Assembly: GCA_043820165.1 (NCBI GenBank)
Contig: JBDRDZ010000037.1
Span: 1 to 38,020, forward strand
Origin: Patescibacteria group bacterium
GTDB taxonomy: Bacteria; Patescibacteriota; Patescibacteriia; UBA9934
DNA: 38,020 nt
Direction of reading: 5' to 3'
Shown here in pieces: positions 2,748-37,799 of this stretch. The notes under the pieces are model-generated. The model did no database searches and was not told where the DNA came from. It saw only the letters and a list, made by a program, of their open reading frames with translations. The number at the start of each line of letters is the position of its first letter. Position 1 is the first letter of the stretch. The translations under genes were made by a program, and so were the position numbers.

Positions 2748-5702
2748 TTATTCTGTTTCAGATTCTTCCTCCCCGGGCGGTGGCTCGACCAACTGCAGGG
2801 CGGCATCAACCTCCTCAGCTGGCAGTTCGCTAATCATAACTCGGATTGGCGCGGCGTCTACCACCTCACCGTCGCTAGTTGTTGCCGTGGCTTTAATCAG
2901 ATATTCGCCAGACTCAGGAATTGCCCAATTGATCACATTAATCGATGTCAGGTCCTGAAGGTCGCTGACGACAAAACTACTACTTGCAGTCCAAAGGTTT
3001 TGAGCCATGACTGACAGGGACCGCAGACTGCCTGGTGAGGCAACCTCGATTACGATTTGATAGTTTTCCTGAGTTCTTTCTATGACTTGATTGTTGTATG
3101 GATTAGAGATTGATATTCCATTAGCAGAACCGGACTCGATAACTTTGATCGAAATTTCTTTACTACCCTGATTATCAACATCATCGTAGGCTGTGACAGT
3201 CAGCGTGTGTGAACCTTCTGATACCCAGCTTGGTAGGGTCATGAAAGTTCCTGTTGGGTTGGTATCCATCCAGGCAAAATTACCATCGATGAGGTACTCG
3301 ACTCGACTAATTGATCGGCGAGCGTTGACTTGAAGGCTGATGCTAAATGAGCGACCAACTTCATCGCTGCCGGAGGGGCTGAGAATACCTACCATTGGTT
3401 TGTTGGCAGCAGTATGAACATCGTCTTCTTCCTCAGGGATTTCGCAAAGCTCCATTGGTACCTCGTCTTCTTTAAGATTTTCATTGCGCTTAGTTAGATA
3501 GCTAGCTATTCCGGCTTCCCAGGCGCTATAGTGTGGATCTTTGGATGGATTTTTTGGCGGATCACCAAGTGGATTTGAACGATCAACAAAGTAAAGTATG
3601 GAGTGATATTCGCCGCAATTCTTTTCTTCGCGGAAGCGTTCCGGAGTTTGATCAGTGGCTAATTTCCCTGAGGCTGAATCGATAATCACACGTTCACTTG
3701 GGATGGCGCCGTCCAAGATTGATTTACCAGTCGATGGAATTTTTGGTGCCGTAAAGCCTTCGACCGGTGTGCCTTCTAGTGCCCGGCGCATGAATTCGTT
3801 CCAAATTGGAGCGGCTACGGTTGATCCACCTGAGCCGCGTGACATTGCTGCACCGTTAGTATTGCCGGTCCAGACACCAGCTACTAAAGACGGCGTATAA
3901 CCGACAGTCCAACCGTCGTTGTAGTCGTTGGTTGTTCCGGTTTTAGTGGCAACTGGCCGTCCTGGCAGAGTTAGTAAACCGCCAGCGCCAAAGAAAGGTG
4001 CTCGTGCCCCGTCGTCTGACAGCACATTGGACATCATTCTTGTGATATTTTGTTCAAGTACTCGCTTACCACCATCATCTTTGTGCTCTTCTAGTATTTT
4101 CCCATTTGCGTCCTCGACTTTTAAAATAGCAACAGGCTCGCGGTAAATACCTTCTGAGGCAAAAGTGGCATAGGCGGCGACATGATCGAGTAATTTGACT
4201 TCACCACCACCAAGCACAATTGCCAGGCCGAAATTTGAGCGATCTCCAAAGGTTGTATAACCGAGCCGTTCAGCAAAATCTATGCCCTGATCGACACCAA
4301 CTAGGTAGAGCATCTTGACGGCTGGAATGTTGAGCGATCCTTGCAGAGCCTTGCGAACAGTGATTGGTCCGCGCTCGCCTAGATCGTAGTTTTTAGGAGT
4401 GTACGGGCCAGTAGCAGTAGGAAAAGATGTTACTGTATCCCAGAGAATTGTGTTTGGTGTGTAGCCCTTTTCAAAACCAGCTGAGTAAATGATCGGTTTG
4501 AAACTTGAACCCGGTTGTAGCGGTCGTAAAGCTACATTGACCTGTCCGTCAATTTCATCATCGAAGTAATCAACCGAGCCAACCATGGCTAAAATTTCAC
4601 CAGTGTTTGGGTCGAGAGCAACCAGACCAGAGTTATTAAAACCGTGGCTTTCCGACCGTGCCTCCTTGTTGTTGGCAACAGCTTCCTCGGCAATTCTTTG
4701 TTTTTCAAAATCCAATGACGTCGTTACTTTAAGGCCGCCTTGTTCAACAACCCGCTGTCCGTAGGTTTCTTCAAGCTGCTCTTTAACCCAAAGTACAAAA
4801 TGCGGTGCGTCAATACCGGAAAGTTTAAGATTGACCGGTGTATCTTGCGCCAGGGCAGCGTCTCGATCAGACTCAGAAATATAATCGAGGTCGGCTAGGC
4901 TGTTAAGGATCCAATCGCGCCTTACCTTCAGCTTTTCCGGATCGTTTAAAAACATGGTTGGCGCCTGCGGTAGAGCAGCAACCGTTGCGGCTTCGGCTAA
5001 GGTTAGATCTTGAACGTGTTTACTAAAATAAGCCTGGGAAGCTGACTCAACGCCATAGTTGGTTGAGCCATACGGGATCTCGTTTAGATAAAGTTGAAGA
5101 ATCTCGTCTTTAGTGAAGCGTCGTTCTAGAGCCATCGACAGAATAATTTCTTTGATTTTACGAGTGTAGGTTTGCTCGGTGGTTAAGATGGCGTTTTTGA
5201 CTAACTGCTGGGTGATCGTTGAGGCACCTTGGCCGGTCGGGTCAAGTGTAGTGACGTTAAAGAGAGCTGCACGTAAGATACCTTTGTAATCAATACCACC
5301 GTGCTCATAAAATTTTCTATCCTCAGCAACCAGAGTTGCCCACTGCATGTAGTCAGGAATTTCTTCGATCACGACTAGTGTGCGCTTTTCATCACCAGCA
5401 ATCTCATAAAGTAGATGCTTGCCATCGCGATCATAAATTTTTGTTGATTGTGCCACTTCTCGGCTTTGCAGCGAGTTCGGGTCAGGTAAGTCTTTTGATA
5501 ACCAGGCAAAAAGTCCTAAAAAGACGATGGCGCCAAAGAGACATAAGGCAATAGCGGCAAGAACAAGATTTTTTAGTAGGCCGCGCTTTTTAAACTTTTT
5601 AAAAAATCTACCTAGAAGATATTTTGCCTTATCGAAAAATTTTCCGCCCTTTGGTAGGCGAGGTTTTTTCTTCTGTGAGGCCCAAGTTTGACCTGATTTC
5701 AT
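2748..5702 (-). CDS. Class A penicillin-binding protein (PBP1A-type glycosyltransferase/transpeptidase) with C-terminal Ig-like domains and acidic tail
   Basis: 984 aa. N-terminal basic tail plus one TM. GT51 motifs VAEDRKFYEHGGID and GASTITQQLVKN. Transpeptidase SSFKP (SxxK), SLN (SxN), KTGTT (KTG). About 230-aa C-terminal extension with two beta-rich Ig-like segments, ending in EPPPGEEESETE. Confidence 0.9.
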   Translation of the reverse strand: MKSGQTWASQKKKPRLPKGGKFFDKAKYLLGRFFKKFKKRGLLKNLVLAAIALCLFGAIVFLGLFAWLSKDLPDPNSLQSREVAQSTKIYDRDGKHLLYEIAGDEKRTLVVIEEIPDYMQWATLVAEDRKFYEHGGIDYKGILRAALFNVTTLDPTGQGASTITQQLVKNAILTTEQTYTRKIKEIILSMALERRFTKDEILQLYLNEIPYGSTNYGVESASQAYFSKHVQDLTLAEAATVAALPQAPTMFLNDPEKLKVRRDWILNSLADLDYISESDRDAALAQDTPVNLKLSGIDAPHFVLWVKEQLEETYGQRVVEQGGLKVTTSLDFEKQRIAEEAVANNKEARSESHGFNNSGLVALDPNTGEILAMVGSVDYFDDEIDGQVNVALRPLQPGSSFKPIIYSAGFEKGYTPNTILWDTVTSFPTATGPYTPKNYDLGERGPITVRKALQGSLNIPAVKMLYLVGVDQGIDFAERLGYTTFGDRSNFGLAIVLGGGEVKLLDHVAAYATFASEGIYREPVAILKVEDANGKILEEHKDDGGKRVLEQNITRMMSNVLSDDGARAPFFGAGGLLTLPGRPVATKTGTTNDYNDGWTVGYTPSLVAGVWTGNTNGAAMSRGSGGSTVAAPIWNEFMRRALEGTPVEGFTAPKIPSTGKSILDGAIPSERVIIDSASGKLATDQTPERFREEKNCGEYHSILYFVDRSNPLGDPPKNPSKDPHYSAWEAGIASYLTKRNENLKEDEVPMELCEIPEEEDDVHTAANKPMVGILSPSGSDEVGRSFSISLQVNARRSISRVEYLIDGNFAWMDTNPTGTFMTLPSWVSEGSHTLTVTAYDDVDNQGSKEISIKVIESGSANGISISNPYNNQVIERTQENYQIVIEVASPGSLRSLSVMAQNLWTASSSFVVSDLQDLTSINVINWAIPESGEYLIKATATTSDGEVVDAAPIRVMISELPAEEVDAALQLVEPPPGEEESETE

Positions 5703-5822
5703 AGTTTTCTTTGTGAAAAATAATACAAACAGCTGTTTCGATTGTACAGAATTATACGTAAAAATGCAATTCTAAGCATAAGTAAAAGTAGGCTAAAATT
5801 AGCCTAAATTCACAGCAGTAAG

Positions 5823-5851
5823 TTGACTTTTTAGTCATTTTGTGGTATAGT
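5823..5851 (+). promoter_or_regulatory. Sigma70-like promoter upstream of the 3D-domain gene
   Basis: TTGACT (5823..5828), 17-nt spacer, TATAGT (5846..5851), with extended -10 TGg. Confidence 0.55.
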
Positions 5852-5907
5852 GCTCATCCCTGGTTAATCCGGGGCTTTTTTTATTCCTATAAAAGGGATA
5901 TACACCT

Positions 5908-6453
5908 ATGAATAAACAATCAAAAAACCGTGCCTTAAAGACGGTTAAAAAATCGAAGTTTGAAATCGGCCTGATTTCAGTTATGGCAGTTTTGCTTGTC
6001 ATGTTTGCTGTCCCAACCGGCGAGGCCTTGGCTGACGAAAACGTTCAGTTTGAGAACCTCGACGAAGGCATTGCTCTTCGTGCACAGGTCATCCAAAATG
6101 CATTTACCCCGTTTGGAGAATTGCCTGAAGCCGAATTAGCTCCGCCGCTTTATTCGCGGGAAATGACCATTACGGCCTATAACTCTGTTGCCGCCCAAAC
6201 TGACTCAACACCTTGTATTGGTGCAGCTGGTACTAACGTCTGTGCTACCTACCAGTCAGGTACCAACGTCTGTGCGGCCAACTTCGTACCTAAGGGTACT
6301 TGGTTGGAGGTTGAAGGACTTGGCCGATGTCGAGTTGACGACCGTATGAACGCACGATATTACTACCGAGTTGACTGGTTTATGGACAAAAACGTTTCAG
6401 CTGCTCGCCAATTTGGCGTTCAAACACGAACGGTTTCAGTCTACCCATCGTAA
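5908..6453 (+). CDS. Secreted 3D-domain (MltA/RlpA-like double-psi beta-barrel) protein, putative cell-wall-binding or lytic
   Basis: 181 aa. N-terminal basic region plus TM/signal (IGLISVMAVLLVMFAVP). C-terminal MTITAYNSVAAQTDSTP...ANFVPKGTWLEVEGLGRCRVDDRMNARYYYRVDWFM...FGV matches the remembered 3D-domain pattern (TAY..QTD...G..v.g.G...v.DRm...iD). Confidence 0.6.
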   Translation: MNKQSKNRALKTVKKSKFEIGLISVMAVLLVMFAVPTGEALADENVQFENLDEGIALRAQVIQNAFTPFGELPEAELAPPLYSREMTITAYNSVAAQTDSTPCIGAAGTNVCATYQSGTNVCAANFVPKGTWLEVEGLGRCRVDDRMNARYYYRVDWFMDKNVSAARQFGVQTRTVSVYPS

Positions 6454-6462
6454 ATTAAACAA

Positions 6463-6490
6463 AAGACGGCCTTGCCAGGTCGTCTTTTGT
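6463..6490 (+). terminator. Intrinsic terminator after the 3D-domain gene
   Basis: aagacg...cgtctt stem followed by tttt. Confidence 0.6.
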
Positions 6491-6552
6491 GATGCTAAGA
6501 TTTAGTAACGAATCATCTTGATTCGATGTAACTACATAAGTAATCAATAAAT

Positions 6553-7131
6553 ATGAAAACAAAGATTATTGCATCAGCTCTCGGTATCATCTTGCTTGGC
6601 GCAGGGTGCTTGGGAGGTGGAGGCACAGATTCACCTGATAATAACGATACCGATACTGACGGTACAGCCGCATCAAATTGGGATTTGGCTTTCGACCTAC
6701 CCGAAGGCTGGATTGTCTCGTCTGACTATTCTGAAGGCTCGATTATGCCATCAGCAGAAGGTATCAGCCCCGAACTAACTGATATTGTGATTCAAAGCAC
6801 CGATAAGAACATTATGCTTAAAGAAATCGAAGATATTGAGTTGAGCGAGGATCAAATTGAAACCGAGAGCTATACTCGCATCCAAGTTTATCGCTATACA
6901 CCTCGTAAAAGCGTGCCAGATAATGCTGAAGATCTGGGCAACGGTTTTTACAAAGCTGAATTTTGTAAAGAAGGCGACGCGTGTGATGTCGGTGGTCGTA
7001 CGCGCTACGATTATTATTTCAGAACTGAACACAACCTCTTCGTTTTCTTGATTCATCAGAAAAACCAAGATATTCAGGCGGCCGAAGGTGTTATCTTGAC
7101 AGCGACTGAAACTGAATTTGCAGGACAATAA
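6553..7131 (+). CDS. Hypothetical lipoprotein
   Basis: 192 aa. Signal peptide with lipobox LLGAGC, then a Gly/Asp/Thr-rich linker (GGGGTDSPDNNDTDTDGT). No family recognised. Confidence 0.65.
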   Translation: MKTKIIASALGIILLGAGCLGGGGTDSPDNNDTDTDGTAASNWDLAFDLPEGWIVSSDYSEGSIMPSAEGISPELTDIVIQSTDKNIMLKEIEDIELSEDQIETESYTRIQVYRYTPRKSVPDNAEDLGNGFYKAEFCKEGDACDVGGRTRYDYYFRTEHNLFVFLIHQKNQDIQAAEGVILTATETEFAGQ

Positions 7132-7348: not shown

Positions 7349-7777
7349 TTATACTTGCTTTGTTTCCTGAAGAATCCTAATGATTTGATCAAGTGGCAGG
7401 GAAGCTAGATTTTTTGGCACTAGCTCTGAAATACTATTTTTTACATCTGTATGTAGCGCTTCAGTAATTTCATTTTTCAGCGCCTCCGGAACACAAAGAA
7501 CGATGACTTTGTAGTCCTGCTTGAGCAGATTTTGTAACCGAGCATTAAGATTCGAATACAGTTCTACTCGACTGTGCCGCTTCATTTCATCGATATCAGG
7601 CGGCCCTGAATTTGGTGTGCCCGAGGCCCGTTCCTCAGGTCTTTGAGTTGTAACGTTGAGTATTTCAAGCTCTTCGACCTCCTTTTCATTAGCTCCAAAA
7701 ATCTTTGCTAGCTCGTTGTTAGTGACGACGATTAGCGTTTTTTTCGGATAGCCAACATAATGTTCCGAGATCTTCAT
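7349..7777 (-). CDS. Hypothetical protein, possibly Host_attach / bacterial eRF1-like (baeRF) family
   Basis: The ORF is open to 7834, but that start would overlap the divergent promoter. M20 (MKISEHYVG, ATG at 7775..7777) is preferred. The pattern TLIVVTNNELAKIF...RHSRVELYSNLNARLQNLLKQDYKVIVLCVPEALKNEI...LVPKNL resembles the Host_attach layout (w.lvad...ari....F...la..L....d.lvlvapp..lg.lr). Assigned from memory only. Confidence 0.45.
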   Translation of the reverse strand: MKISEHYVGYPKKTLIVVTNNELAKIFGANEKEVEELEILNVTTQRPEERASGTPNSGPPDIDEMKRHSRVELYSNLNARLQNLLKQDYKVIVLCVPEALKNEITEALHTDVKNSISELVPKNLASLPLDQIIRILQETKQV

Positions 7778-7858
7778 ACATATTAATACTATCAGACTTG
7801 GATATATTTTGCACGTTATTTCAAGGTTAATCAAAGTTTTGTGATATAATTTGCCTGT

Positions 7859-9566: not shown

Positions 9567-9659
9567 TCAAACTTACAAACAAAGCTGATGCTTGTAAGTT
9601 TGCGTACATTCAGATCCCCCCGATCGCACCTACCTAACTTCCCACCTTCTGGAGGCTGT

Positions 9660-10406
9660 ATGCTGGAAGATCTTTCTCTGATCGAGCTCGACGACGAGTT
9701 CTGGACGTTTTACGCACAGATCTACGATAAAGGTACGGCCACACTATTCGGCTATCGTCAGCTGCTCGAAATGGTCATAGGACGCCTGAGGCTCCAAGAA
9801 AGGTCTCGGGTGGTCGATGCCGGTTGCGGCACCTTCAACTACGGTCTGGCTGTTCTTGAGCGGGTTCCGAAGGCTTGGATCATTGGGCTGGAGAAGAACC
9901 CGGCCATGATTCGCGTCGCTCACGCTAAGCTCGGCAGTGGGCTGGAGAAGACCCATGTTCTTTGTCACGATCTCGATAAGGAGCCTTGGCCACGAATTGC
10001 CAAGAATGCGGATGTAATTCTCTCGGTCAACAGCCTTTACGCTCTGAATGACCCCGTTGACTTCTTGACCAGTGTTTTCGAAGCTCTTAACCCCGGTGGT
10101 CAGTTGCTCTTGGTCAACTTGAGCAATCCATCAACCAGGGCGGTTCTAGAAGCTCACGACAAGTGGCTGAGGACCGAGGCTAGTGAGTCCGAGAGGTTTG
10201 ACGACGCTAGTCTAGCTTGGGCTCGTGACATTATCGTCGTCATGAATCAGCATATCGCCCGTATCTCGGCTGGTAGTGCTTTGCATGTTCTAGCTCCAGA
10301 CGACCTTGCTCGTCTCGTCAAAAACGCTGGTCTCAAGATCAACGAACTGATACCCAGCGTTTACAACGGCACCTGTGTGCTGATCGACGCCGAAAAGCCA
10401 CAATAA
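9660..10406 (+). CDS. Class I SAM-dependent methyltransferase (GC-elevated gene)
   Basis: Preferred start is ATG 9660, preceded by GGAGG (9651..9655). Motif I VVDAGCGTFNYG, post-I IIGLE, motif II/III ADVILSVNSLYAL and LNPGGQLLL. Confidence 0.8.
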   Translation: MLEDLSLIELDDEFWTFYAQIYDKGTATLFGYRQLLEMVIGRLRLQERSRVVDAGCGTFNYGLAVLERVPKAWIIGLEKNPAMIRVAHAKLGSGLEKTHVLCHDLDKEPWPRIAKNADVILSVNSLYALNDPVDFLTSVFEALNPGGQLLLVNLSNPSTRAVLEAHDKWLRTEASESERFDDASLAWARDIIVVMNQHIARISAGSALHVLAPDDLARLVKNAGLKINELIPSVYNGTCVLIDAEKPQ

Positions 10407-16829: not shown

Positions 16830-17891
16830 ATGACAGACAACACTGCAGAATATAAAAAATATGACACGCAGAACATTTGCGAAGCCAACGAATTGCTTCC
16901 CGAACAAGTGCGTGTTGCCTGGGATGGCACCCGAGAATTAAAAGTTCCAAAAAGTTATAGTCAGGTTAGAAATATTGTTTTTATTGGCATGGGTGGTTCT
17001 GGGCTCGGAGCTGATCTGATAAAAGGTTCGATATTTAGTCGACTGAAAGTGCCTTTTGAACTTTTCCGCGGTTACAATTTGCCAGGCTATGTTGATAAAA
17101 ATTCTTTAGTGATTCTTTCGAGTTTTTCCGGTTCCACGGAAGAAGTGCTCCACGCTTCTAAGGTGGCAAAGGAAAGAGGTGCTAAACGTTTTGTAATTGC
17201 CTCTGGCAGCAAGCTAGCAGCTTATGCTAAGCGTGAAAAAATTCCGTCATATATTTTTGTTCCAGGTGAACTTGCTAAGCAGCCGCGCTTAGGGCTAGGC
17301 TTTTCTGTCGTCGGCGTGCTCGGGTTTTTACAAAAAGCCGGGTTAGTCAAAATAAGTGCTAAAGAAGTGAAGGCAATGCAAGAAGCTATGAATGACGTTG
17401 TCGATAGTTGTGCGGTAGATGTTCATTCAAAAGAAAATCCAGCTAAGATTGTTGCCGAAGCGCTGATGCAAAGAGCGGTGTTAGTTGTTGGAGCTCAACA
17501 TTTAACTGGCAACGCTCACGTATTAACTAATCAAATTAACGAATCTGGGAAACAGTTTGCAATGTATCTAACTTTACCGGAGCTGAACCATCATTTTATG
17601 GAAGGTTTGACTTATCCAAAAAAGTTTTTCAGTCAGTTTACCGTGCTGATGATCAAGTCTAAACTGTATCATCCGCGGGTTCAAAAAAGATTTGATATTA
17701 CAGCTGAAGTTTTTGAAAATCAGGGCGGGGATGTAGTTGAGTACACAGCCAACGGTGAGACTTTGTTAGAAGAGATGGGAGAATTATTGCAGTTTGGGAG
17801 TTTTATGAGCTGCTACATGGCGGTATTGAATAAGGTTGATCCATATCACATTCCGTTTGTAGATTGGTTTAAAGAGAAGATGGGTAAGTAA
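16830..17891 (+). CDS. Bifunctional phosphoglucose/phosphomannose isomerase (SIS-domain, archaeal-type PGI/PMI)
   Basis: 353 aa. SIS motifs FIGMGGSGLGADL and SFSGSTEE. ELNHHFMEG region typical of the PGI/PMI family. Confidence 0.8.
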   Translation: MTDNTAEYKKYDTQNICEANELLPEQVRVAWDGTRELKVPKSYSQVRNIVFIGMGGSGLGADLIKGSIFSRLKVPFELFRGYNLPGYVDKNSLVILSSFSGSTEEVLHASKVAKERGAKRFVIASGSKLAAYAKREKIPSYIFVPGELAKQPRLGLGFSVVGVLGFLQKAGLVKISAKEVKAMQEAMNDVVDSCAVDVHSKENPAKIVAEALMQRAVLVVGAQHLTGNAHVLTNQINESGKQFAMYLTLPELNHHFMEGLTYPKKFFSQFTVLMIKSKLYHPRVQKRFDITAEVFENQGGDVVEYTANGETLLEEMGELLQFGSFMSCYMAVLNKVDPYHIPFVDWFKEKMGK

Positions 17892-17897
17892 AAAAAA

Positions 17898-17924
17898 GAA
17901 CGGGCCGCAAGGTCTGTTTTTTTG
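17898..17924 (+). terminator. Intrinsic terminator after the PGI/PMI gene
   Basis: aacgggcc-gcaa-ggtctgtt stem (with G-U pairs), followed by ttttttt. Confidence 0.6.
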
Positions 17925-17988
17925 TTTGAAAATAAGTATCGGCGACCCAGGACAGATGTCCCAGGCCGCCGATCGCGGTTGAAGGCCC

Positions 17989-19956
17989 CTACGGACCAAA
18001 GCGCCAGCTTCTCTGCTTGGACTTGCAGTGCTCCGGTTGTCTATCAGCCGGCTGCTCCAGACAGCTGTACACCTTGTATTTGGCCGAGATGCTCGTGATG
18101 GTGCCATAGCCACCGCCAGCACAGGCGAAGATGAACAGCAGGGCGACGGTTGCCCAAGTGACCCAGCTGATGGTCCGCAAGATCGCCTTGATCTTGAACT
18201 CTTCGGAAATCCGCCAGGCCCAGTGACGCATCATCTCCGCCAGGAGGCCAACGAGACCACCGATAACCACAGCTGCCATGGAACCAGCGATCCCCATATT
18301 GAAGTAGTAGACGCAGGTGACCAGGATAGTCACGACGAAGCTGATGATCGTCCAGGTGGTGCCCAACATGGCCATACCTTCGACTCGTTTTGGCGTCACG
18401 GCTGGTGTGGTCGATGACGACGAAGGTGCGGTCGCCACTTCCGGAGTACCAGGCAGCAGTTCGCGCATACCCTTGATGACCTTGATGGCCAGTTCGGCCA
18501 CCATTTTGGCCTTCTCCATCTGGAGAACTGAAGCGATGAAGCGCAGTCCTCCTAGTATGGTGTTGTGCATCATGTCGAGCAGGGCGATCGAAAAGCGACT
18601 GATTAGCGTCGCGACCAAGCCAGCCAGGTGGATGATCCAAACGCCGAGCATGAGAGCGGCCCAGAGGCTGAAGTAGAGCTGGCCGTTGTAGACGTACCAG
18701 AACTGGCCAGTGATGCCGAACATCTGCTGTACCGGGTAGTTGACGAACAGCAGGATCAGAGTCGTCCCGGTCAACACCAGATAGCCACCGACGGCCAGCA
18801 CTAGCGAAACCACGAAGATGCTGACCCAGCTGATGATCACCGCTTTGGCAATATTCTTGACCCAGCCCCAAATGCTCGAAGCAAATTCTGGACCCATGGT
18901 CTTGACCTTACTGAGCAGGTCGGCCTTGTAGACCTTCCACTCAACTCGATCAACACTGGTGAACTTATCGTCGAAGGTGTCGAGCACCCCTTTGATGTGG
19001 AACCAGGCGCTGTCCTGCAGCGCTTCATCGTCGCGTCCGACGTGGCGGATCACGGCCAGAAACGGCCGGTATCGCTGCAGCGTCGTGTGGATAAGATCGA
19101 GCTCAACTACGGGCAAGGGCAGATTCTTGCGGTCCGCCTCAGCTACCTGCAGAATGGCTTCGAGCGCGTCGTTGTACTCATCTGGCGTCAGTTCGGGCAG
19201 GAACTCGACGACGTGTGGCTCGGCCAGTAGACCGGCGTGGTGAGCGTCCATGAGCGTGTTGGCTCGTGTTGGCTCGTTGATGATGTCACGAACTCGCAGG
19301 TCAAAGATGCCTTCGAGCACGGCCAGCGACTTGCGCTGTTCCGGAGTGATGACTCCGATCAGGGTCGGCGAGCTATGTGCTTCCGGCTCGGTCTTGATGA
19401 TACCAGCAGCGAATTCTGGTCCGAAGCAAATCGGGCAGATCGGTCGGTGCGGGTAGGTCTTGAACATGGTGTAGATGCTGCCGGTGAAGGCATTGTGCAC
19501 CTTGGCACCAGCACAACCATCCGTCTTGTGGATCGGATCGTACTCGTGATCACCGGTACAAGCCTTGCCAGGCTCGGTGATTTCTTGGTGAACCGGACTG
19601 CCGTCCTTGACTGATTCGAAAAGCTTGTCCTTGAGCTCCTTGCTCGTGAGGTCCTGACGCTTGAGCATGCGCTCAATGCCAGGAGCAATGGCTTTGATGC
19701 CGCCAGTCAGCGGTACTCTAATCAGTCCCGGGATAGCTGGCGTGGCCTTAATGGTCTCGCCAATTGTGGTCAAACCCACCGAGCGGATACTCGGATCCAT
19801 GGCGATCACCGCTTCGGCAATCCACCAGATCACCCCGCCCATCTTTTTGAGCTTGTTGACATCGGTATCGGCAATAGCTGTCTCGACCTTTTCCTGAATT
19901 TCGTGCTCGGCGACACCGCCGAAGATGCTGCCGAAGTTTGGGTTTCCATGGGCCAT
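17989..19956 (-). CDS. Hypothetical 655-aa polytopic membrane protein with Cys/His-motif N-terminal domain (GC-rich island)
   Basis: Long ORF with AAGGAGG 5 nt upstream of the ATG and strong G/C-ending codon bias. About 340-aa soluble N-terminal part containing GKACTGDHEYDPIHKTDGCAGAKVH and HRPICPICFG. Then about 6-7 hydrophobic helices, and a Ser/Thr/Pro linker (TPEVATAPSSSSTTPAVTP). No family recognised. Confidence 0.75.
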   Translation of the reverse strand: MAHGNPNFGSIFGGVAEHEIQEKVETAIADTDVNKLKKMGGVIWWIAEAVIAMDPSIRSVGLTTIGETIKATPAIPGLIRVPLTGGIKAIAPGIERMLKRQDLTSKELKDKLFESVKDGSPVHQEITEPGKACTGDHEYDPIHKTDGCAGAKVHNAFTGSIYTMFKTYPHRPICPICFGPEFAAGIIKTEPEAHSSPTLIGVITPEQRKSLAVLEGIFDLRVRDIINEPTRANTLMDAHHAGLLAEPHVVEFLPELTPDEYNDALEAILQVAEADRKNLPLPVVELDLIHTTLQRYRPFLAVIRHVGRDDEALQDSAWFHIKGVLDTFDDKFTSVDRVEWKVYKADLLSKVKTMGPEFASSIWGWVKNIAKAVIISWVSIFVVSLVLAVGGYLVLTGTTLILLFVNYPVQQMFGITGQFWYVYNGQLYFSLWAALMLGVWIIHLAGLVATLISRFSIALLDMMHNTILGGLRFIASVLQMEKAKMVAELAIKVIKGMRELLPGTPEVATAPSSSSTTPAVTPKRVEGMAMLGTTWTIISFVVTILVTCVYYFNMGIAGSMAAVVIGGLVGLLAEMMRHWAWRISEEFKIKAILRTISWVTWATVALLFIFACAGGGYGTITSISAKYKVYSCLEQPADRQPEHCKSKQRSWRFGP

Positions 19957-20108
19957 GAGGCCTCCTTGTTTTCGAAAAGGGGTTTGGAATTGTGTAGGGG
20001 TTGTGTACGAGCGACAGCGGCCGCACCGTACGGTAGATGAAATGAACGCAAAAATTATGTTATTCAGGACCGACTACACAAAAGAAATTAGCCCTGAATT
20101 AACAGTCA

Positions 20109-20137
20109 ATATTATCATTATTTTAGCTAATTGTCAA
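20109..20137 (-). promoter_or_regulatory. Sigma70-like promoter for the 655-aa gene
   Basis: Minus strand reads TTGACA (20132..20137), 17 nt, TAATAT (20109..20114). Implies a 5' UTR of about 145 nt. Confidence 0.5.
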
Positions 20138-20261
20138 TGAAAAGTACTTACAGCGCAAAGGTGCGGGTTTTTTACTTTTCTTTAGGTTTTTCCAAAGAAA
20201 AGTAGATACTGGCCGCTTTATGCTGCAAAAAGATAATCACGCCTAAAATAGGCGTATTTGC

Positions 20262-20290
20262 TTGACAAAAGGCCATTTTTGTGCTATATT
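20262..20290 (+). promoter_or_regulatory. Sigma70-like promoter for the 259-aa secreted-protein gene
   Basis: TTGACA (20262..20267), 17 nt, TATATT (20285..20290). Shares TTGACAAA...GCTATATT with the tRNA-Leu promoter at 37885. Confidence 0.55.
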
Positions 20291-20390
20291 ATACAGTCAG
20301 TTTTGACCGTGGAAACCTGCTTTCAAAGGCGGGAATTCATGCGTTCTTCACATGAAATAGCGATCCATGAGTCGCTTTGCAGGAGATGCC

Positions 20391-21170
20391 ATGCATTGGT
20401 TTCTTTCTTGGTTCGCCATCCTCGTCGCCACCCCGGCTCTGGCTCAGAACCAGCCTAGCCACAAGAAGGACAGGATCGTCTGCGCCAACGTGCCGCCAGT
20501 TGTCATCACCCCGCGGGGCGGTGGCTTCCTCGGCATTCCCTACATCATGATCGGCAAGAAGGCCTGTCGCGAGGCCGAGGCTGATGTCATTCCCAGCGAG
20601 TCGGCGCCGTCATCTCTGCCCCAGGTGGCCGGGATCGACACCAACAAGCTGAGCTACAACGCCCTCGACCGTGCCCTCGGTCGTGAGCCGCGTGACCGCG
20701 CTGGTCAGATCGATCCGAGCGTCTGCTTCGAGGACGCACCGCCGGTCGGCTGGGAAGCGATTCCTGGTCCGCAGCGCCTGGTCGTGCAAAACAACACCGA
20801 CTCGGCGCTCGAGATTAAGGTTTTCACCCATCGCGGTGAGACCAAAGTCGAGACCGCGGTTGGCTTCGTCGGCTTCCCCGAGTTTGAAGGCTACCATTTG
20901 CCGACGCTCGTCGAAGGTCACGGTAGTGTGTTGCCGCCGCACACCACCTGCTACACCAGGCTGCCGACCAATCGCTCTGGCGTCTGGTCAGTGCAGGCCG
21001 AGCAGCTCGTGCACAGCGGTGACTTCGGCGAGTGGGTTCAGGACGGCGAGTCCTTCACCTATTCCGTGCCGCTCGTCGCCGATGGTTCGCAAAAGACCTA
21101 CGGCGTTCGCGATCGCGGCCAGCGTCAGTCGCTGATCGTCTTTCGCGCCAGCGTCTTCCGTACCCCTTGA
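20391..21170 (+). CDS. Hypothetical secreted protein (GC-rich island)
   Basis: Preferred start is M9 of the listed ORF (ATG 20391), preceded by AGGAG. Signal peptide MHWFLSWFAILVATPALAQ. GC-rich codon usage. No family recognised. Confidence 0.7.
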   Translation: MHWFLSWFAILVATPALAQNQPSHKKDRIVCANVPPVVITPRGGGFLGIPYIMIGKKACREAEADVIPSESAPSSLPQVAGIDTNKLSYNALDRALGREPRDRAGQIDPSVCFEDAPPVGWEAIPGPQRLVVQNNTDSALEIKVFTHRGETKVETAVGFVGFPEFEGYHLPTLVEGHGSVLPPHTTCYTRLPTNRSGVWSVQAEQLVHSGDFGEWVQDGESFTYSVPLVADGSQKTYGVRDRGQRQSLIVFRASVFRTP

Positions 21171-21185
21171 GCGCCTCGCGCTCTG

Positions 21186-21208
21186 CCCCCGTTGCCTAGC
21201 AGCGGGGG
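21186..21208 (+). terminator. GC-rich hairpin after the secreted-protein gene
   Basis: cccccgttgc-cta-gcagcggggg 10-bp stem. Only a weak T-tract follows (attgtgtttg). Confidence 0.5.
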
Positions 21209-21222
21209 ATTGTGTTTGTAAT

Positions 21223-21262
21223 AAAAAAAACACAGCTCGTGAAGAGCTGTGTTTTTGTTTTT
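21223..21262. terminator. Bidirectional intrinsic terminator at the island / pilin-array junction
   Basis: aaaaaaaa-cacagctc-gtgaa-gagctgtg-tttttgtttttttt. Perfect 8-bp stem with an A-run and a T-run. Confidence 0.85.
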
Positions 21263-21263
21263 T

Positions 21264-21665
21264 TTATGTAGTAAGTCCAGCGGTTTGCAATGCTGTGATA
21301 ACAAACTGTGAAACTGCGTAAGCACCCAAGGTGATGACCAAACCAATGATTCCGTTGATCATCCACTTTTTCGCTTTCTTCACCTGCTCGTCATTACCAC
21401 CAGCTGTCATCCAGAGAAATCCAGCGTAAAGGATGATGACAAGTAGAATGATACCCAGAAAGCCGAGAACGGCACTGATTAGCGTACCGATTAACTGCGG
21501 TAGAGTTGTTGTACCAAAACCGGCTCCGGTCGGCCCGGCAACAGTTCCGAGGTCTGTGGAAATGTCAATCTGAGCGTGTGCGCTCAAACCCCAAGCTCCA
21601 AGCCCCGCAATGACCATAAGGCCTACCAGGGCGGCGCGCGATAAATAATATTTTGCGTGGCTCAT
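21264..21665 (-). CDS. VirB2/TrbC-like 'T4SS pilin' family small membrane protein, paralog 1
   Basis: 133 aa. Signal peptide, variable segment, then LLVIILYAGFLWMTAGGNDEQVKKAKKWMINGIIGLVITLGAYAVSQFV (two TM helices joined by a basic loop). Confidence 0.75.
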   Translation of the reverse strand: MSHAKYYLSRAALVGLMVIAGLGAWGLSAHAQIDISTDLGTVAGPTGAGFGTTTLPQLIGTLISAVLGFLGIILLVIILYAGFLWMTAGGNDEQVKKAKKWMINGIIGLVITLGAYAVSQFVITALQTAGLTT

Positions 21666-21698
21666 AATTAAAGTTAATTAATTTTGAATATTTATATT

Positions 21699-22061
21699 TT
21701 ATTGAGCTGCTTGAATAGATGATACCACAAAGTCAGCAATGGCGTAAGCGGCAATTGTGATGACTAGTCCTATAGCCGCGTTCATGATCATCTTTTGAGC
21801 TTTTTGCAGTCGATCTTTATTGCCACCCGCAGTCATCCACATGAAACCGGCGTAAACGACCAATAACAGAAAAACAATACCAAGCGTTGACAGCAAAATT
21901 CTGATAACTACACCGATGGTTGTCAACAGATCCATGCCCTCGGCAGTGCCATAGACTTCAGTGCCGACAGTATCGACTTGAGACAAAAAATTCTGGCCGT
22001 GTGCTATTGCCGGCAGTGTCATGACGACAATTATTGCTATTGTCAAGAAAGTTCGTTTCAT
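21699..22061 (-). CDS. VirB2/TrbC-like pilin family protein, paralog 2
   Basis: 120 aa. Signal peptide, then LLLVVYAGFMWMTAGGNKDRLQKAQKMIMNAAIGLVITIAAYAIADFV. Confidence 0.75.
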   Translation of the reverse strand: MKRTFLTIAIIVVMTLPAIAHGQNFLSQVDTVGTEVYGTAEGMDLLTTIGVVIRILLSTLGIVFLLLVVYAGFMWMTAGGNKDRLQKAQKMIMNAAIGLVITIAAYAIADFVVSSIQAAQ

Positions 22062-22063
22062 AT

Positions 22064-22432
22064 TTATCCCGCTAGAGCCAAGAAGATGTACCTGGTTAGG
22101 CCATAAGCCAGCAAAACGATCACTAGACCAAGAAGCGAATTGGTAAGAATGCTTTTTGCTTTCTTAAGTGTTTCTTCTTTGCCACCGCCGGTCATCCAGA
22201 GTAATCCGCCGTAGATGATTAAGATGAGAAAGATGACGCCAACCAAACTAAACAGGGGATTAATGATTCTAGCACCGATATAAGTACCGAAAGCCGTGGT
22301 TGCTTCGTTAGTATCGTAGCCCGCTGTGTTGGCGGTTTCTTTTAAACCGATATCATCAGGAGAAATCTGCGCAAAAACAAAATTCATCGGTAGTAGAATT
22401 GATAGTAGAGTCAGGGCGAACAGTTTTCGCAT
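22064..22432 (-). CDS. VirB2/TrbC-like pilin family protein, paralog 3
   Basis: 122 aa. Signal peptide, then LILIIYGGLLWMTGGGKEETLKKAKSILTNSLLGLVIVLLAYGLTRYI. Confidence 0.75.
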   Translation of the reverse strand: MRKLFALTLLSILLPMNFVFAQISPDDIGLKETANTAGYDTNEATTAFGTYIGARIINPLFSLVGVIFLILIIYGGLLWMTGGGKEETLKKAKSILTNSLLGLVIVLLAYGLTRYIFLALAG

Positions 22433-22480
22433 AGCGGAAGGCCGGGAAAATTCCTAGCCAACCGTCATTCGAGAACCTAA

Positions 22481-22909
22481 TTAGTTTGAGGCTTCCAAAA
22501 GTGAGGAAACAACGAAACTGGTGATGGCGTATGCGGAAAGGATGATTGCCAAACCGATAACACCGGCAATCAAGAGCTTTCTGGCCTCGCCAACCTTCTC
22601 GTCGTTGCCACCAGCGGTCATCCACTTGAAACCGCCCCAGAGAACGATAACCACAGCGACAATTCCGAGAAAGCCGAGCACGATATTGATAATATTACCA
22701 ATAGTGCTTTGCAACTCAGCCGTACCAAGACCGGTCGCCGAAGCGAATGTCGGGTCGATGAGGTCGGCCTCGGTGAGACCATCGGCATCATCTGCAGTTT
22801 CGGCGTCCTCGTCAGCCGCGTAGACAAATGAGGTAGCAGCCACAAATGGCAATGCTAGCATTAGGCCGAGCGTGAGGCTAACGGCGATACGAAGTAATGT
22901 ATTAGACAT
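22481..22909 (-). CDS. VirB2/TrbC-like pilin family protein, paralog 4 (acidic N-terminal segment)
   Basis: 142 aa. Signal peptide, acidic stretch ADEDAETADDADGLTEADLIDP, then VVIVLWGGFKWMTAGGNDEKVGEARKLLIAGVIGLAIILSAYAITSFV. Confidence 0.75.
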   Translation of the reverse strand: MSNTLLRIAVSLTLGLMLALPFVAATSFVYAADEDAETADDADGLTEADLIDPTFASATGLGTAELQSTIGNIINIVLGFLGIVAVVIVLWGGFKWMTAGGNDEKVGEARKLLIAGVIGLAIILSAYAITSFVVSSLLEASN

Positions 22910-23005
22910 ACTTGCAAGTTATGAATTAAGTGATCACTTAGAACACATCCTACAGGCACTTTCGACAAGCGGAACGTAGCTGTGGGATAGGCTCTAAAAT
23001 AATGA

Positions 23006-23359
23006 TTATGGAGTTGGATTCGTTAGAACTTCTGGTGTGAGCAGCGCCTGGAAGATGGTATTGGTAATGACATACGCTGAGGTGATGACTACTATACCAA
23101 GAATCGCCCAAGTCAGCACTCTTTTTCCTTTGTCAATATTTTCCTGTCGGCCGTTGGCTGTCATCCAGATTAATCCGCCGTAAATAAACATGACCAAAGC
23201 GATCGTGCCAGAAATAGCCAGAACACCGGAAATGACGCGACCAATAATAACTCGGACGTCGGTGGTGCCCAGCGGATTCGTGAGCGTCACTTGGGCGGCC
23301 GCGATATATGGCACTAGAGCGCCAAAGAGTAATACTGCCAAAACTCGCAATCGTTTCAT
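23006..23359 (-). CDS. VirB2/TrbC-like pilin family protein, paralog 5
   Basis: 117 aa. Signal peptide, then LVMFIYGGLIWMTANGRQENIDKGKRVLTWAILGIVVITSAYVITNTI. Confidence 0.7.
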   Translation of the reverse strand: MKRLRVLAVLLFGALVPYIAAAQVTLTNPLGTTDVRVIIGRVISGVLAISGTIALVMFIYGGLIWMTANGRQENIDKGKRVLTWAILGIVVITSAYVITNTIFQALLTPEVLTNPTP

Positions 23360-23420
23360 ACGTCAAAATTATAGCACGAAAGCGGAAAAAGACCCTGTTG
23401 ATTGATTTATAATCAAATAT

Positions 23421-24131
23421 TTACGGACCAGGAGTCGGGTTATTGGTTTCAAAAGGCACATCAAAATCACGAGTTTCAGGAACTGGATCTGGGAAAATAC
23501 AGTCGCCAAGGCTGAGCGGGCTTCCGGGCGAGTTAGGGTCAATGCCGTAGTAGTGGCAGATTTCATTACTACTACAAGATACTAACTCTCCGGTCGCAGG
23601 ATCTGTTCGCGCACAATAGCCTGATCGGGGTGAAGAAGGTGCAGTGTCGTCTTGACCTCTAATGACATCTTCGAGATCTCCAGTTGGAATATTACCAGTT
23701 TTGAGTACGGAGATTAGCAGGGTTACGCCGGTGTAGGCAAAAAAGACAATTAAAATTCCAATAACTGCACCGACCATGGTTTTTTTACCTTCATCGATAC
23801 GATTTGGATTGCCAAGCGAGGTCAACCAAGTGACGCCGCCAAAGACGAACATGGCAACAAGAATGCTACCACTGATAGCTAGAATAAAAGTACCGATGTT
23901 GACCATGATCTGCAGAATATTCTCGAGTTCGCAGCGGCCTTGGTCGCGGCAAGCGCATGGCGTTCCTCGACTGGCACAAATACCAGCAAAAATAATGCCT
24001 TGCTCTTGTATTTTAGCAAAGGTAGAAACATCGTTTTGCGCTTGCGCTTGGTGAGGTGTTAGTCCGAAAAAACCTCCAGCCAAGACCAAAACGATTAATG
24101 ATATTTTTAGGCTAAACCTCCAAGAATGCAT
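23421..24131 (-). CDS. Divergent pilin-family paralog 6 with Cys-rich N-terminal segment and about 90-aa C-terminal extension
   Basis: 236 aa. Signal peptide, then AGICASRGTPCACRDQGRCELENI. Degenerate core VAMFVFGGVTWLTSLGNPNRIDEGKKTMVGAVIGILIVFFAYTGV. Then a Cys/Pro-rich tail (SGYCARTDPATGELVSCSSNEICHYYGIDPNSPG...GDCIFPDP). Confidence 0.65.
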   Translation of the reverse strand: MHSWRFSLKISLIVLVLAGGFFGLTPHQAQAQNDVSTFAKIQEQGIIFAGICASRGTPCACRDQGRCELENILQIMVNIGTFILAISGSILVAMFVFGGVTWLTSLGNPNRIDEGKKTMVGAVIGILIVFFAYTGVTLLISVLKTGNIPTGDLEDVIRGQDDTAPSSPRSGYCARTDPATGELVSCSSNEICHYYGIDPNSPGSPLSLGDCIFPDPVPETRDFDVPFETNNPTPGP

Positions 24132-28909: not shown

Positions 28910-28999
28910 TGGCGGAGAGGGAGGGATTCGAACCCTCGAGACCCTTTCAGGTCTACAGCTTTTCGAGAGCTGCGCTTTCGACCACTCAGCCACCTCTCC
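28910..28999 (-). tRNA. tRNA-Ser (anticodon CGA), long variable arm, CCA encoded
   Basis: Reverse complement is GGAGAGGTGGCTGAGTGGTCGAAAGCGCAGCTCTCGAAAAGCTGTAGACCTGAAAGGGTCTCGAGGGTTCGAATCCCTCCCTCTCCGCCA. Anticodon stem CAGCT/AGCTG with loop CTCGAAA. T-arm GAGGG-TTCGAAT-CCCTC. Confidence 0.93.
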
Positions 29000-29026: not shown

Positions 29027-29058
29027 TAAAAAAACGATCGCGTCCACGGGGGCGCGAT
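29027..29058 (-). terminator. Intrinsic terminator after the AlaE-like gene
   Basis: 9-bp stem atcgcgtcc-acgg-gggcgcgat. On the minus strand it is followed by cgttttttt. Confidence 0.7.
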
Positions 29059-29534
29059 TAGACTTTGAACTTGGTTTTGAGTCGTTCGATGACACATTTG
29101 AGCCCATCGAGCACGAGCCCAAAAAAGGGGCCGACAAAAAAAGTCGTGACAGCGACAAAAGCGATAGCGTTCAAGCTGCTAACGATCCTTAATTCTGTGC
29201 CGAGAAAAGAACGAATGACTACCTGAACCACGATCGCTATCGTATAAAGAATTACATGGTAAAGACAGTAGCAGGGCGCGTCGATGATGACACGCTGTAG
29301 GCGATCAGTTGTCGTCAGTTTGCTGAGTTCCGTCTTTGAGACCTCGAGAAACCAGTCGCGGAAGCGATCATACTGACCGCCAAACGAGACCTTCGCGGTG
29401 ATGAACCAAATGCGGTTGGCGAGAAACTCACTTGGAGTCATTTCAGCAATATAGATGTCCACCGGCAAAGACGATAACGCTCCGATGAACATAGCTACAT
29501 AGCCGGCTGGGTTGGAGCGTAATCTTGCGAACAA
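29058..29534 (-). CDS. Small membrane protein, possibly AlaE-family L-alanine exporter
   Basis: 158 aa, TTG start. Overall layout and motifs (MFARLRS..., YDRFRDWF, C-terminal FFGLVLDGLK) resemble E. coli AlaE (MFSPQSRLRH..., YGMYRDLF, YGYFLDYCRR) as remembered. GC moderately elevated (hand count 31/60 at 29101..29160). Confidence 0.45.
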   Translation of the reverse strand: MFARLRSNPAGYVAMFIGALSSLPVDIYIAEMTPSEFLANRIWFITAKVSFGGQYDRFRDWFLEVSKTELSKLTTTDRLQRVIIDAPCYCLYHVILYTIAIVVQVVIRSFLGTELRIVSSLNAIAFVAVTTFFVGPFFGLVLDGLKCVIERLKTKFKV

Positions 29535-37256: not shown

Positions 37257-37799
37257 CTAGGGGTCGCGGGGAGTGGCTCGGGGCGATTCACGTGTGGCGA
37301 GTTCTGCCTCGATGCGGCTGTAAATGGTGGCGAACATCACAGTCTTTTCGTAAAGGATCGTCTCTGATTCTATCAAGGCTCGCTCTGACTCGAAGATCAG
37401 TTCGTTGCAGCGCCGGCGGAAAATCGAATGAGTCTTCAGATCCGGTTCAGCACCAGATCGGCGGAATTCATCTGCTGCTTGACGGGACTCAGTGATCTTG
37501 CTCCGGGATTCTGCAACGGCAGTTTGAACATCGCGATGCAGAGCGGTGAGCGTTGTGATGTAGCCGCTAAGTCGACGGCGCTCGCGATCTGACAGATCCT
37601 TGTTCAGAGCAAAGAGCCGTAGCTCCATGATCTCAGCGGTGATAGCGTAGTCGTTCTCGACAATCGTGTAGACCCGTACTCGGCCGTCCATTGCCTTGGC
37701 TAGTTGCTGTTCGCTGACAACATCCTGACAGGCAATGTATTCAGGCACGGGTTCTTGGGCTTGGGCCAACGTCAGATAGAAGAGGAGGTGAAGGAACAT
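37257..37799 (-). CDS. Hypothetical secreted coiled-coil-like protein (GC-rich gene)
   Basis: Preferred start is M14 (ATG 37797..37799), giving signal peptide MFLHLLFYLTLAQAQ. Arg/Glu-rich helical remainder. Hand-counted GC is 42/60 at 37261..37320 and 34/60 at 37561..37620, against about 23/60 in housekeeping lines. Confidence 0.6.
   Translation of the reverse strand: MFLHLLFYLTLAQAQEPVPEYIACQDVVSEQQLAKAMDGRVRVYTIVENDYAITAEIMELRLFALNKDLSDRERRRLSGYITTLTALHRDVQTAVAESRSKITESRQAADEFRRSGAEPDLKTHSIFRRRCNELIFESERALIESETILYEKTVMFATIYSRIEAELATRESPRATPRDP

Follow-up and report, generated by a model that had tools for sequence, protein, structure and literature searches.

Why does a 3.3-kb segment of GC-rich DNA stand out so sharply from its surroundings in a patescibacterial genome? 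The segment occupies positions 17935–21225 of contig JBDRDZ010000037.1 from a Patescibacteria group bacterium (GCA_043820165.1; GTDB lineage Bacteria; Patescibacteriota; Patescibacteriia; UBA9934). The whole stretch analyzed, 38,020 bp in length, is termed the window here. The segment contains two divergent genes, encoding a 655-aa polytopic membrane protein, termed BIG (17989–19956, minus strand; NCBI ABH846_01310), and a 259-aa protein predicted to be exported, termed SEC (20391–21170, plus strand; NCBI ABH846_01315). An earlier reading of the same letters, made with no database searches (the sequence-only reading), took the segment for a surface or host-interaction module recently acquired from a high-GC donor or host.

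Comparison among related lineages does not bear out the recent acquisition: the same locus, with an excess of GC at third codon positions (GC3), is found in 13/13 lineages. A large, ancient and synonymous GC excess limited to transcription units imitates an island of horizontal gene transfer (HGT) at this locus, which is a new observation. We consider it probable that the segment is an anciently resident, hyper-divergent and clade-specific envelope module composed of BIG and SEC, and that it works with the pilus encoded next to it. The assignment to the surface or to host interaction, which is plausible for a module beside a pilin array, can still be inferred.

Base Composition and Codon Usage

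The GC content is 0.565 within 17935–21225 and 0.445 in the rest of the window, which places the segment at z=8.4 relative to host 3.3-kb windows (mean 0.444, sd 0.014, max 0.472); its dinucleotide signature distance from the host is also large (z=4.7). GC3 is 0.727 in the 655-aa open reading frame (ORF) of BIG and 0.761 in that of SEC (0.76–0.78 according to the start chosen, the protein being 267 aa rather than 259 aa in length if translation begins at an ATG further upstream, at 20367), compared with 0.30–0.60 in the remaining 35 ORFs of the window. ORFs of at least 80 aa occur at 3.6/kb in the segment and at 1.7/kb elsewhere. The sequence-only reading had described a sharp change in composition, the prevalence of G/C-ending codons in both ORFs and the pile-up of alternative-frame ORFs, all of which are sustained by calculation (56.5% vs 44.5% GC; GC3 0.73/0.76); its hand counts of 37/60 and 23/60 G+C are exact.

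From host to module, the frequency of A at third positions decreases from 0.24 to 0.09 and that of T from 0.33 to 0.17. AAG, CAG and GAG are favored as Lys, Gln and Glu codons, T-ending four-fold codons are also reduced, and the shift spans all codon families. Amino-acid usage stays near that of the host, with GC at first and second codon positions (GC1 and GC2) raised by about 0.05. Codon choice has moved generally from A/T to G/C, which is not the pattern expected from tRNA adaptation at a moderate genome GC content.

The excess is unevenly distributed within the segment. GC content is 0.57 and 0.63 in the two coding sequences and 0.65–0.67 in the 3′ untranslated regions (UTRs) including their own hairpins (BIG 3′ UTR, 17935–17988, 0.67; SEC 3′ UTR, 0.65). 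It is 0.45–0.48 in the 5′ UTRs and 0.38 in the 124 bp between the two -35 boxes (20138–20261), which are presumed to be untranscribed. Host intergenic DNA has a pooled value of 0.37 (0.371).

Persistence of the Module and of its GC3 Excess

An exhaustive phmmer search of 1.84 billion representative proteins detected 14 relatives of BIG (620–840 aa; E 4e-74 to 2e-5), none of them outside this patescibacterial synteny. Every relative with readable context is located in the same neighborhood, defined by PGI, pilin and SBP genes. These include P0004 (GCA_022565055.1), P0005, P0006 and P0007 (Logan, NCBI and marine metagenome contigs), P0008 (GCA_002998485.1) and, likewise in the PGI/pilin neighborhood, P0014, P0015 and P0016. 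In addition, 160 PGI loci of Patescibacteria were fetched from GTDB genomes and JGI metagenomes and scanned with a hidden Markov model (HMM) of the family, which revealed further, more divergent members at the same place in loci L011 (labeled Ca. Uhrbacteria), L012–L014 and L095 (JGI). No match was obtained in phage and plasmid collections, whether by DNA or by tblastn, or in viral contigs. For this analysis, BIG is the founding member of an unannotated family which, judged from these searches, appears to be confined to one clade of Patescibacteria. The clade carrying the module is that of Uhrbacteria-like Patescibacteria.

Thirteen independent lineages, whose PGI proteins are 39–64% identical to one another, were compared in composition. 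In all 13, GC3 of the module (0.62–0.88) exceeds that of the flanks (0.36–0.59), the difference ranging from +0.16 to +0.48, with GC1 and GC2 differing by only 0 to +0.11. Module GC3 is independent of flank GC3. The DNA between the -35 boxes has a GC content of 0.29–0.43 in eight other lineages. As this inter-promoter DNA keeps the GC content of host intergenic DNA, the excess tracks two transcription units rather than one contiguous tract.

All clade members examined carry the module at this locus, and only more distant outgroups lack it. L169, L018 and L029 have a pilin array but no GC-rich module; in L169, the array is located directly between PGI and the SBP and NTP transferase genes, in an arrangement otherwise as in the window. 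Since these more distant relatives have the array without the module, the module was apparently gained in the ancestor of one subclade. The sequence-only reading had named homology of both proteins to well-characterized housekeeping families, conserved at this position in related genomes, as an outcome contrary to its view: the conservation at this position is observed, whereas the families are uncharacterized.

Rapid Divergence at a Fixed Locus

BIG is 20–35% identical between lineages whose flanking proteins are 42–83% identical. The contrast is clearest between L011 and L014, where the flanks are 80–83% identical in protein and 72–78% in DNA, whereas BIG is 25% and an exported coiled-coil partner 37% identical, and the module DNA is unalignable; DNA similarity collapses exactly across the module. 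The rate of divergence of the module is at least 5 times that of its flanks.

This divergence takes place under constraint. SEC of the window and that of its closest relative, L001, share 71% amino-acid identity over the aligned part, with a dN/dS of 0.23 (dS ~1). SEC is under net purifying selection, and both genes are real, in agreement with the earlier description of two divergent genes. Polymorphism among the near-identical contigs L007–L010 is not concentrated in the module. Of the hallmarks of a diversity-generating retroelement, neither a reverse transcriptase (in the Pfam scans) nor a repeat of any module part elsewhere in the window was detected.

Anatomy of BIG

BIG lacks a signal peptide. 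A mostly helical domain of about 350 aa at its N-terminus contains a putative zinc-binding His/Cys3 motif at residues 143–177 (H143-x4-C148 ... C174-P-x-C177-F-G; 19426–19530, minus strand). In an alignment of 15 family members (A1), R58, H143, C174, C177 and D329 are invariant, and C148 and D326 are at least 90% conserved. Short beta strands are predicted around the ligands of the H-x4-C...CPxCFG motif (pLDDT 84–86 in the AlphaFold2 model), and no zinc-finger model matches BIG. The His/Cys3 domain would constitute a putative zinc site in the cytoplasm, a candidate for the zinc-ribbon or treble-clef type. Just ahead of the membrane region is the DxxD motif D326-T-F-D329-D330 (18967–18981, minus strand), the only motif common to the whole family: even in an alignment of 18 members that includes the most divergent ones (A5), D329 is invariant and D326 at least 90% conserved.

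The membrane region (residues 366–617; 18106–18861, minus strand) contains about 5–7 hydrophobic segments in a Kyte–Doolittle scan, which appear as long helices in the AlphaFold2 model and are connected by positively charged loops. It is followed by a C-terminal tail with a Cys pair, C632 and C644 (18025–18063, minus strand), and such a pair of the CxxxPxxxxC type recurs throughout the family. The parity of the transmembrane (TM) segments and the loop charges suggest that the tail is probably outside the cytoplasm. The Cys/His clusters and the approximately 6–7 TM helices after a soluble half, as noted in the sequence-only reading, are thus seen in the translation and in the hydropathy profile, respectively.

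In AlphaFold2 predictions of BIG, pLDDT is 44 from the single sequence and 64.7 with alignment A1, reaching 94 within residues 200–320. A Foldseek comparison of the BIG model, which had been proposed together with the sequence-only reading, detected no match in the PDB (best E 0.76, TM-score below 0.3) and, in BFVD, only insignificant likeness to helical tape-measure proteins (TM-score at most 0.16). PDB sequence and profile searches with BIG and SEC gave nothing below E=0.2. Neither protein has a match in Pfam, NCBIfam, PHROGs or PADLOC, consistent with the earlier statement that neither fits a known family; no Pfam family reaches E ≤0.1 for any of the 15 BIG-family members. A word-indexed protein search with BIG, alone or as an 18-sequence profile, returned only the query itself. 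In scans of single members of alignments A1 and A4, one member matched the major facilitator superfamily protein Tet(42) and one an OPT transporter; these matches were inconsistent across members and were rejected as noise from TM segments.

Anatomy of SEC and its Coiled-Coil Partner

Residues 1–18 of SEC, MHWFLSWFAILVATPALA, followed by QNQ, are signal-peptide-like as judged by eye, as had been stated for the 259-aa protein in the sequence-only reading, and the N-termini of orthologs are similar. The conserved part is a C-terminal domain of about 160 aa (residues ~100–259; 20688–21167), in which C112 and C187 are invariant (alignment A4). An HMM of this domain matches in L002–L007, L011, L014, L176 and L177. 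No Pfam, NCBIfam or PDB match was found for SEC, and a metagenome scan with the SEC alignment gave no match. In L006, L007, L011, L014, L176 and L177, a separate exported, Cys-rich coiled-coil protein is encoded ahead of the SEC domain gene; its gene is a third one, located between BIG and SEC, in several sister lineages.

Promoters, Transcript Leaders and Borders

The spacer between BIG and SEC is 434 bp in length, with a GC content of 0.41 overall and 0.30–0.38 in its core. The BIG promoter (TTGACA-N17-TAATAT, with TG before the -10 hexamer; 20109–20137, minus strand) and the SEC promoter (TTGACAAAAGGCCATTTTTGTGCTATATT, TTGACA-N17-TATATT; 20262–20290, plus strand) are placed back to back in it. 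The latter has 11/12 consensus positions and an extended -10, and resembles the tRNA-Leu promoter in form (TTGACAAACATTGGTTTTTCTGCTATATT). The earlier account of an AT-rich spacer of about 430 bp with two near-consensus promoters, one of them similar to that of tRNA-Leu, was correct. A perfect palindrome, ACGCCTAAAATAGGCGT (20239–20255), abuts the SEC -35 box on its upstream side and might serve as an operator or insulate the divergent promoters from each other. In nearly every lineage, two promoters of the form TTGACAAAA..TGnTAnnnT (TTGACAAAA..TTTTnTGnTAnnnT) are arranged back to back; 15 such promoters are located in modules, compared with 4 in about threefold as much flanking DNA.

The BIG 5′ UTR, predicted to be 146 nt from a predicted transcription start (19957–20102, minus strand), ends in AAGGAGG-N5-ATG, and a stem-loop is predicted at the 5′ end of the transcript (~20062–20099, minus strand; dG -14.1, z=-4.3). 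Across lineages, BIG transcripts have a 5′ UTR of 69–163 nt with an AGGAGG-like Shine–Dalgarno end, and a 5′ stem-loop is predicted in 13/13 of them (mean z -2.8). The 5′ UTRs of the subfamily of P0016 and P0012 (L175, 9877–10000; L091, upstream of 333) share a long and very stable hairpin (dG ~-28 kcal/mol, z ~-5) that ends in GGGRCGCTYAGGCGTCCTTT and could be a conserved leader RNA element. An Rfam scan of the window detected three tRNAs only.

A near-consensus promoter, TTGACTTTTTAGTCATTTTGTGGTATAGT, is also present outside the module, at 5829–5857 of the window upstream of an ORF at 5908–6453. Only four such promoters, this one included, occur in the approximately 130 kb of flanking DNA of the clade loci. 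Downstream of it are a predicted 5′ stem-loop (z -3.7) and this 181-aa ORF, which has no Pfam match. GC3 of the ORF is ordinary (0.45), so that high GC3 does not simply accompany a strong promoter.

In both module genes, the 5′ UTR is long and its Shine–Dalgarno sequence strong. Each also has a GC-rich terminator hairpin of its own: that of BIG, found by a terminator scan, has a 16-bp stem (17938–17973, minus strand), and that of SEC is CCCCCGTTGCCTAGCAGCGGGGG (21186–21208, plus strand). Outside these, the module is bordered by native terminators, namely an A-run/hairpin/T-run terminator after PGI on the left (17897–17925) and a bidirectional terminator common to the pilin operon on the right (21226–21256), close to the positions named in the sequence-only reading (~17924 and 21223). 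The two terminators are 72% alike over 39 nt (17889–17927 and 21222–21260; TAAAAAAAA...TTTTTGTTT), which is the sole border repeat and probably reflects convergence of bidirectional terminators rather than target duplication. There is no tRNA near the borders, the nearest being at 7170 and 28910, and no integrase domain in any ORF scanned with Pfam. Apart from the terminator likeness, the earlier impression of borders without integrase, tRNA or direct repeats is therefore upheld.

Linkage to the Pilin Array

In the window, as in the conserved block of the clade, genes for HK, NifS, NifU, Fer4, rubredoxin reductase and PGI are followed by the module, an array of six VirB2-like pilin genes (21264–24131, minus strand), an SBP gene and an NTP transferase gene. 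The array is context rather than part of the module. Of its genes, two were tested directly against PF18895 (T4SS_pilin) and match at 40.9 bits (21264–21665) and 35.2 bits (23421–24131), above the cut-off of 26.6; all six homologs are annotated as T4SS_pilin in L005, L006 and L007. The six-gene pilin array reported beside the island in the sequence-only reading is thereby verified.

The array adjoins the module in L005–L007, L011, L012, L014, L095, L175 and L176, and module and array are linked in every lineage with the pilin side visible, with the exception of L177. In L011 (10188–16230), L014 (10202–16340), L175 (7317–12193) and L176 (5490–12151), the array is located on the PGI side in the opposite orientation, while BIG keeps its position relative to SBP. 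With the array flipped and on the other side, array and module would have been rearranged around each other while staying adjacent.

A GC-rich three-gene block is also present in L061 (Ca. Uhrbacteria SI072_bin87; 2799–6728), where it ends a five-gene pilin array. Its GC3 is 0.78–0.82, compared with about 0.46–0.58 in the flanks, and its products are a 660-aa protein, whose N-terminal half is soluble and which has many TM segments, and two exported or anchored coiled-coil proteins. The 660-aa protein has no detectable similarity to the BIG profile (hhalign probability 3%). The block may be an analogous module or a homolog diverged beyond recognition.

Proposed Role, Cause of the GC3 Excess and Alternatives

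SEC would be exported via the Sec pathway and disulfide-bonded outside the cell. BIG might anchor SEC in the membrane or act as its partner there, with its C-terminal tail outside and its putative zinc domain in the cytoplasm. Together, the two proteins would act at the cell surface with a VirB2-type pilus, contacting a host or partner cell. An arms race at this interface would explain the rapid divergence.

The GC3 excess might be kept in place by an A/T to G/C pressure tied to the two transcription units. The leading candidate cause is selection for GC-rich, nuclease-resistant and long-lived mRNA, which is ranked first because the excess is confined to transcription units and because of the GC-rich 3′ hairpins and the 5′ stem-loops. 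The next candidate is GC-biased repair or conversion focused on the BIG and SEC genes; this would account for the shift in all codon families and for the loss of similarity at the module, whereas the spared spacer and the magnitude of the effect do not fit it. Combined into one account, a so far undescribed, locus-restricted process in these ultra-small symbiotic bacteria, whether mRNA selection or a repair or conversion bias coupled to transcription units, would have acted on a hyper-evolving host-interface module of two new families that works with a VirB2-type pilus, so that the island would have been made and kept in place and would not stem from transfer. This combined account is tentative.

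Several observations weigh against the proposed envelope module or parts of it. The function is deduced from anatomy and neighborhood, with no homology to a characterized protein or fold; the His/Cys motif is missing from the most divergent family members (alignment A5); VirB4 and other core genes of a type IV secretion system (T4SS) are not in the window; and in L177 the module adjoins glycosyltransferase genes in place of a pilin array. The spacer is short and promoter-constrained, which weakens the argument from transcription units, and the 5′ hairpins rest on predicted transcription starts and are not significantly different from those of 4 control promoters (p ~0.09). The pilin genes, which are presumably highly expressed, have no GC3 excess, and codon adaptation to high expression was judged from the pattern of the shift. 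With respect to descent, BIG and PGI distances are weakly correlated (Spearman 0.19, Mantel p=0.19), and exchange of alleles within the clade is possible; with BIG saturated and a PGI tree of star-like shape, strict vertical descent and such exchange are not separable.

Among the alternatives, recent horizontal acquisition of the 3.3-kb island from a high-GC donor or host would account for the sharp deviation of GC, GC3 and dinucleotide signature, for the sharp borders at terminators and for the orphan-like behavior of both proteins in the word-indexed search. It is nonetheless highly improbable, given that the module stays at one locus in 13/13 lineages with PGI as little as 39–64% identical, that in none of these does the excess depend on flank GC, and that no homolog was found outside the synteny among the 1.84 billion proteins or in the phage, plasmid and viral sets. 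Moreover, the amino-acid composition hardly departs from that of the host (GC1 and GC2 higher by ~0.05), the promoters are of host type in every lineage, and integrase, tRNA and target duplication are absent. Repeated import as the cause of the GC3 excess is effectively excluded. A mis-join of GC-rich reads of another organism into the contig is conceivable for a window that is a single contig of a metagenome-assembled genome, but its probability is negligible: the same arrangement recurs in independent assemblies (NCBI, ENA, JGI and Logan; several projects), and in a chimera the composition would have to switch four times between syntenic native genes to the left and right, with a spacer of host-type promoters midway. 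Because of this independent recurrence and the four switches needed, chimeric assembly is excluded in practice. Very unlikely, too, is a polymorphic antagonism locus in which SEC is a secreted toxin or bacteriocin and BIG a membrane protein for immunity or export. The very fast divergence of a small exported protein with a disulfide pair and its membrane partner, the atypical composition and the strong promoters of their own would suit such a locus, whereas no toxin, immunity or defense model matches in PADLOC, Pfam or NCBIfam, and BIG carries a conserved cytoplasmic domain. Typical immunity proteins are far smaller than BIG. In addition, each genome has a single conserved copy, always at a fixed core locus, with neither orphan immunity arrays nor swapping of C-terminal toxin domains; the conserved part of SEC is its C-terminal domain.

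Recurrent allelic replacement at a recombination hot spot, with divergent alleles from a clade-wide pool entering through the conserved flanks and GC-biased gene conversion raising GC3, is regarded as unlikely. It is consistent with the flanks of L011 and L014 being ~75% identical in DNA while similarity collapses exactly over the module, with the decoupling of module GC3 from flank GC3, with BIG distances that do not track PGI distances and with the rearrangement of the pilin array around the module in several lineages. The A/T to G/C shift in all codon families is what biased conversion predicts, and a link between recombination and higher GC3 has been reported in bacteria (PMC4450053). However, the inter-promoter DNA, midway in the tract, has the GC content of host intergenic DNA, and the near-identical strains L007–L010 have no excess polymorphism in the module. 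The BIG proteins of L011 and L014 are mutual best matches, as are their coiled-coil partners, and the window, L002 and L005 are near one another by BIG as well as by PGI; the two findings are compatible with descent with acceleration. Where biased gene conversion has been reported in bacteria, its effects fall far short of a GC3 rise of 0.2–0.5, and replacement leaves the GC-richness of the shared pool unexplained. A further alternative is that the two proteins are canonical but highly diverged T4SS subunits, BIG being a VirB6/PrgH-like channel and SEC a VirB5- or VirB8-like protein. The tie between module and VirB2-like array wherever the pilin side is visible (except L177), its retention with the array on the other side (L011, L014, L175 and L176), and the polytopic nature of BIG (~5–7 segments), encoded beside six PF18895 pilin genes, are in favor of this idea; in Patescibacteria, T4SS components are highly diverged and pilin arrays are located near dnaA (PMC12102498). 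Yet it appears distinctly unlikely, as 0/15 members have a Pfam match at E ≤0.1 even though Pfam includes T4SS families, and as there is no PDB sequence or fold match. VirB6 is not known to have a large cytoplasmic N-terminal His/Cys domain ahead of its TM segments, and a rate of divergence at least 5 times that of housekeeping neighbors would be unusual for core machinery; the L177 module has no adjacent pilin array.

Comparison With Known Systems

The envelope module resembles classical genomic islands in the sharp deviation of GC, GC3 and dinucleotides, in its abrupt borders and in the location of genes of no known function beside surface-structure genes. Unlike such islands, it has no integrase, tRNA or direct repeat, uses host-type promoters and has no donor that could be found. 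It is fixed at one locus clade-wide, and its deviation, uneroded despite deep divergence, is nearly all synonymous and does not extend beyond two transcription units. The module is a clean counter-example to reading a deviation in GC or codon usage as a sign of recent horizontal transfer, its own deviation being large (GC3 up by as much as 0.48), clade-wide and old. A literature search for such islands yielded nothing relevant.

A persistent GC content above that of the host genome is also a property of the gene transfer agent clusters of the RcGTA type in Alphaproteobacteria (PMC7360931), which are vertically inherited, as the module may be. In those clusters, the excess lies in GC1 and GC2, reflecting amino-acid choice, and GC3 is the same as in neighboring genes (PMC7360931), whereas in the module the excess lies in GC3 (+0.16 to +0.48) and GC1 and GC2 are barely changed. 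Recombination-linked elevation of GC3 (PMC4450053) is similar in its synonymous rise in all codon families and in unusual locus dynamics, but the magnitude in the module is far larger and the untranscribed spacer is spared. The locus would be a test bed for GC3 heterogeneity in bacteria, where biased gene conversion and mRNA-level selection can be set against each other, as the same locus is comparable across many lineages with differing background GC.

Genes for S-layer or other major surface proteins, such as Lactobacillus slpA, have strong promoters and a long 5′ UTR with a 5′ stem-loop; their products have a Sec signal peptide and diverge extremely between relatives. The module shares the divergence and, as predicted from its sequence, the other features. 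By contrast, SEC is small (259 aa) with no known anchoring domain, and the codon shift of the module does not have the pattern of adaptation to the tRNA pool.

VirB2 arrays near dnaA have been described in Patescibacteria (PMC12102498), and the window conforms to this in that its array is close to dnaA and linked to the module. BIG and SEC differ from the T4SS of these bacteria in matching no T4SS model, and the same study does not mention a BIG/SEC pair or a GC anomaly (the term "GC content" is absent from it). In Saccharimonadia, T4SS genes, and a pilin array in Ca. Southlakia epibionticum, are reported to be essential for epibiotic growth (PMC12102498). The two protein families without annotation that are linked to pilin arrays in the Uhrbacteria-like clade are new, and the third component in sister lineages adds to them. 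Given their extreme divergence, BIG and SEC are candidate determinants of host specificity.

Other Features of the Window

The genes dnaA (173–1300) and dnaN (1563–2699) open the contig, so that the module is located about 18 kb from dnaA. The position of these genes and a cumulative GC skew that rises across the window suggest that the replication-origin region lies at the start of the contig. Being on the minus strand, BIG and the pilin operon would then probably be oriented head-on to replication.

Three other ORFs are mildly GC3-rich, all well below the module: those encoding a methyltransferase (9588–10406; 0.58), an AlaE-like exporter (29058–29534; 0.58) and a 193-aa protein with no Pfam match (37257–37838; 0.60). 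The only mobile-element gene seen in the window, for an IS200-like Y1 transposase (PF01797; 28191–28613), adjoins tRNA-Ser(CGA) (28910–28999) at a distance of 7 kb from the module. At 7349–7834, the window encodes a baeRF_family12/Host_attach protein ("protein required for attachment to host cells"), which is kept in the same synteny block in L006 and L007.

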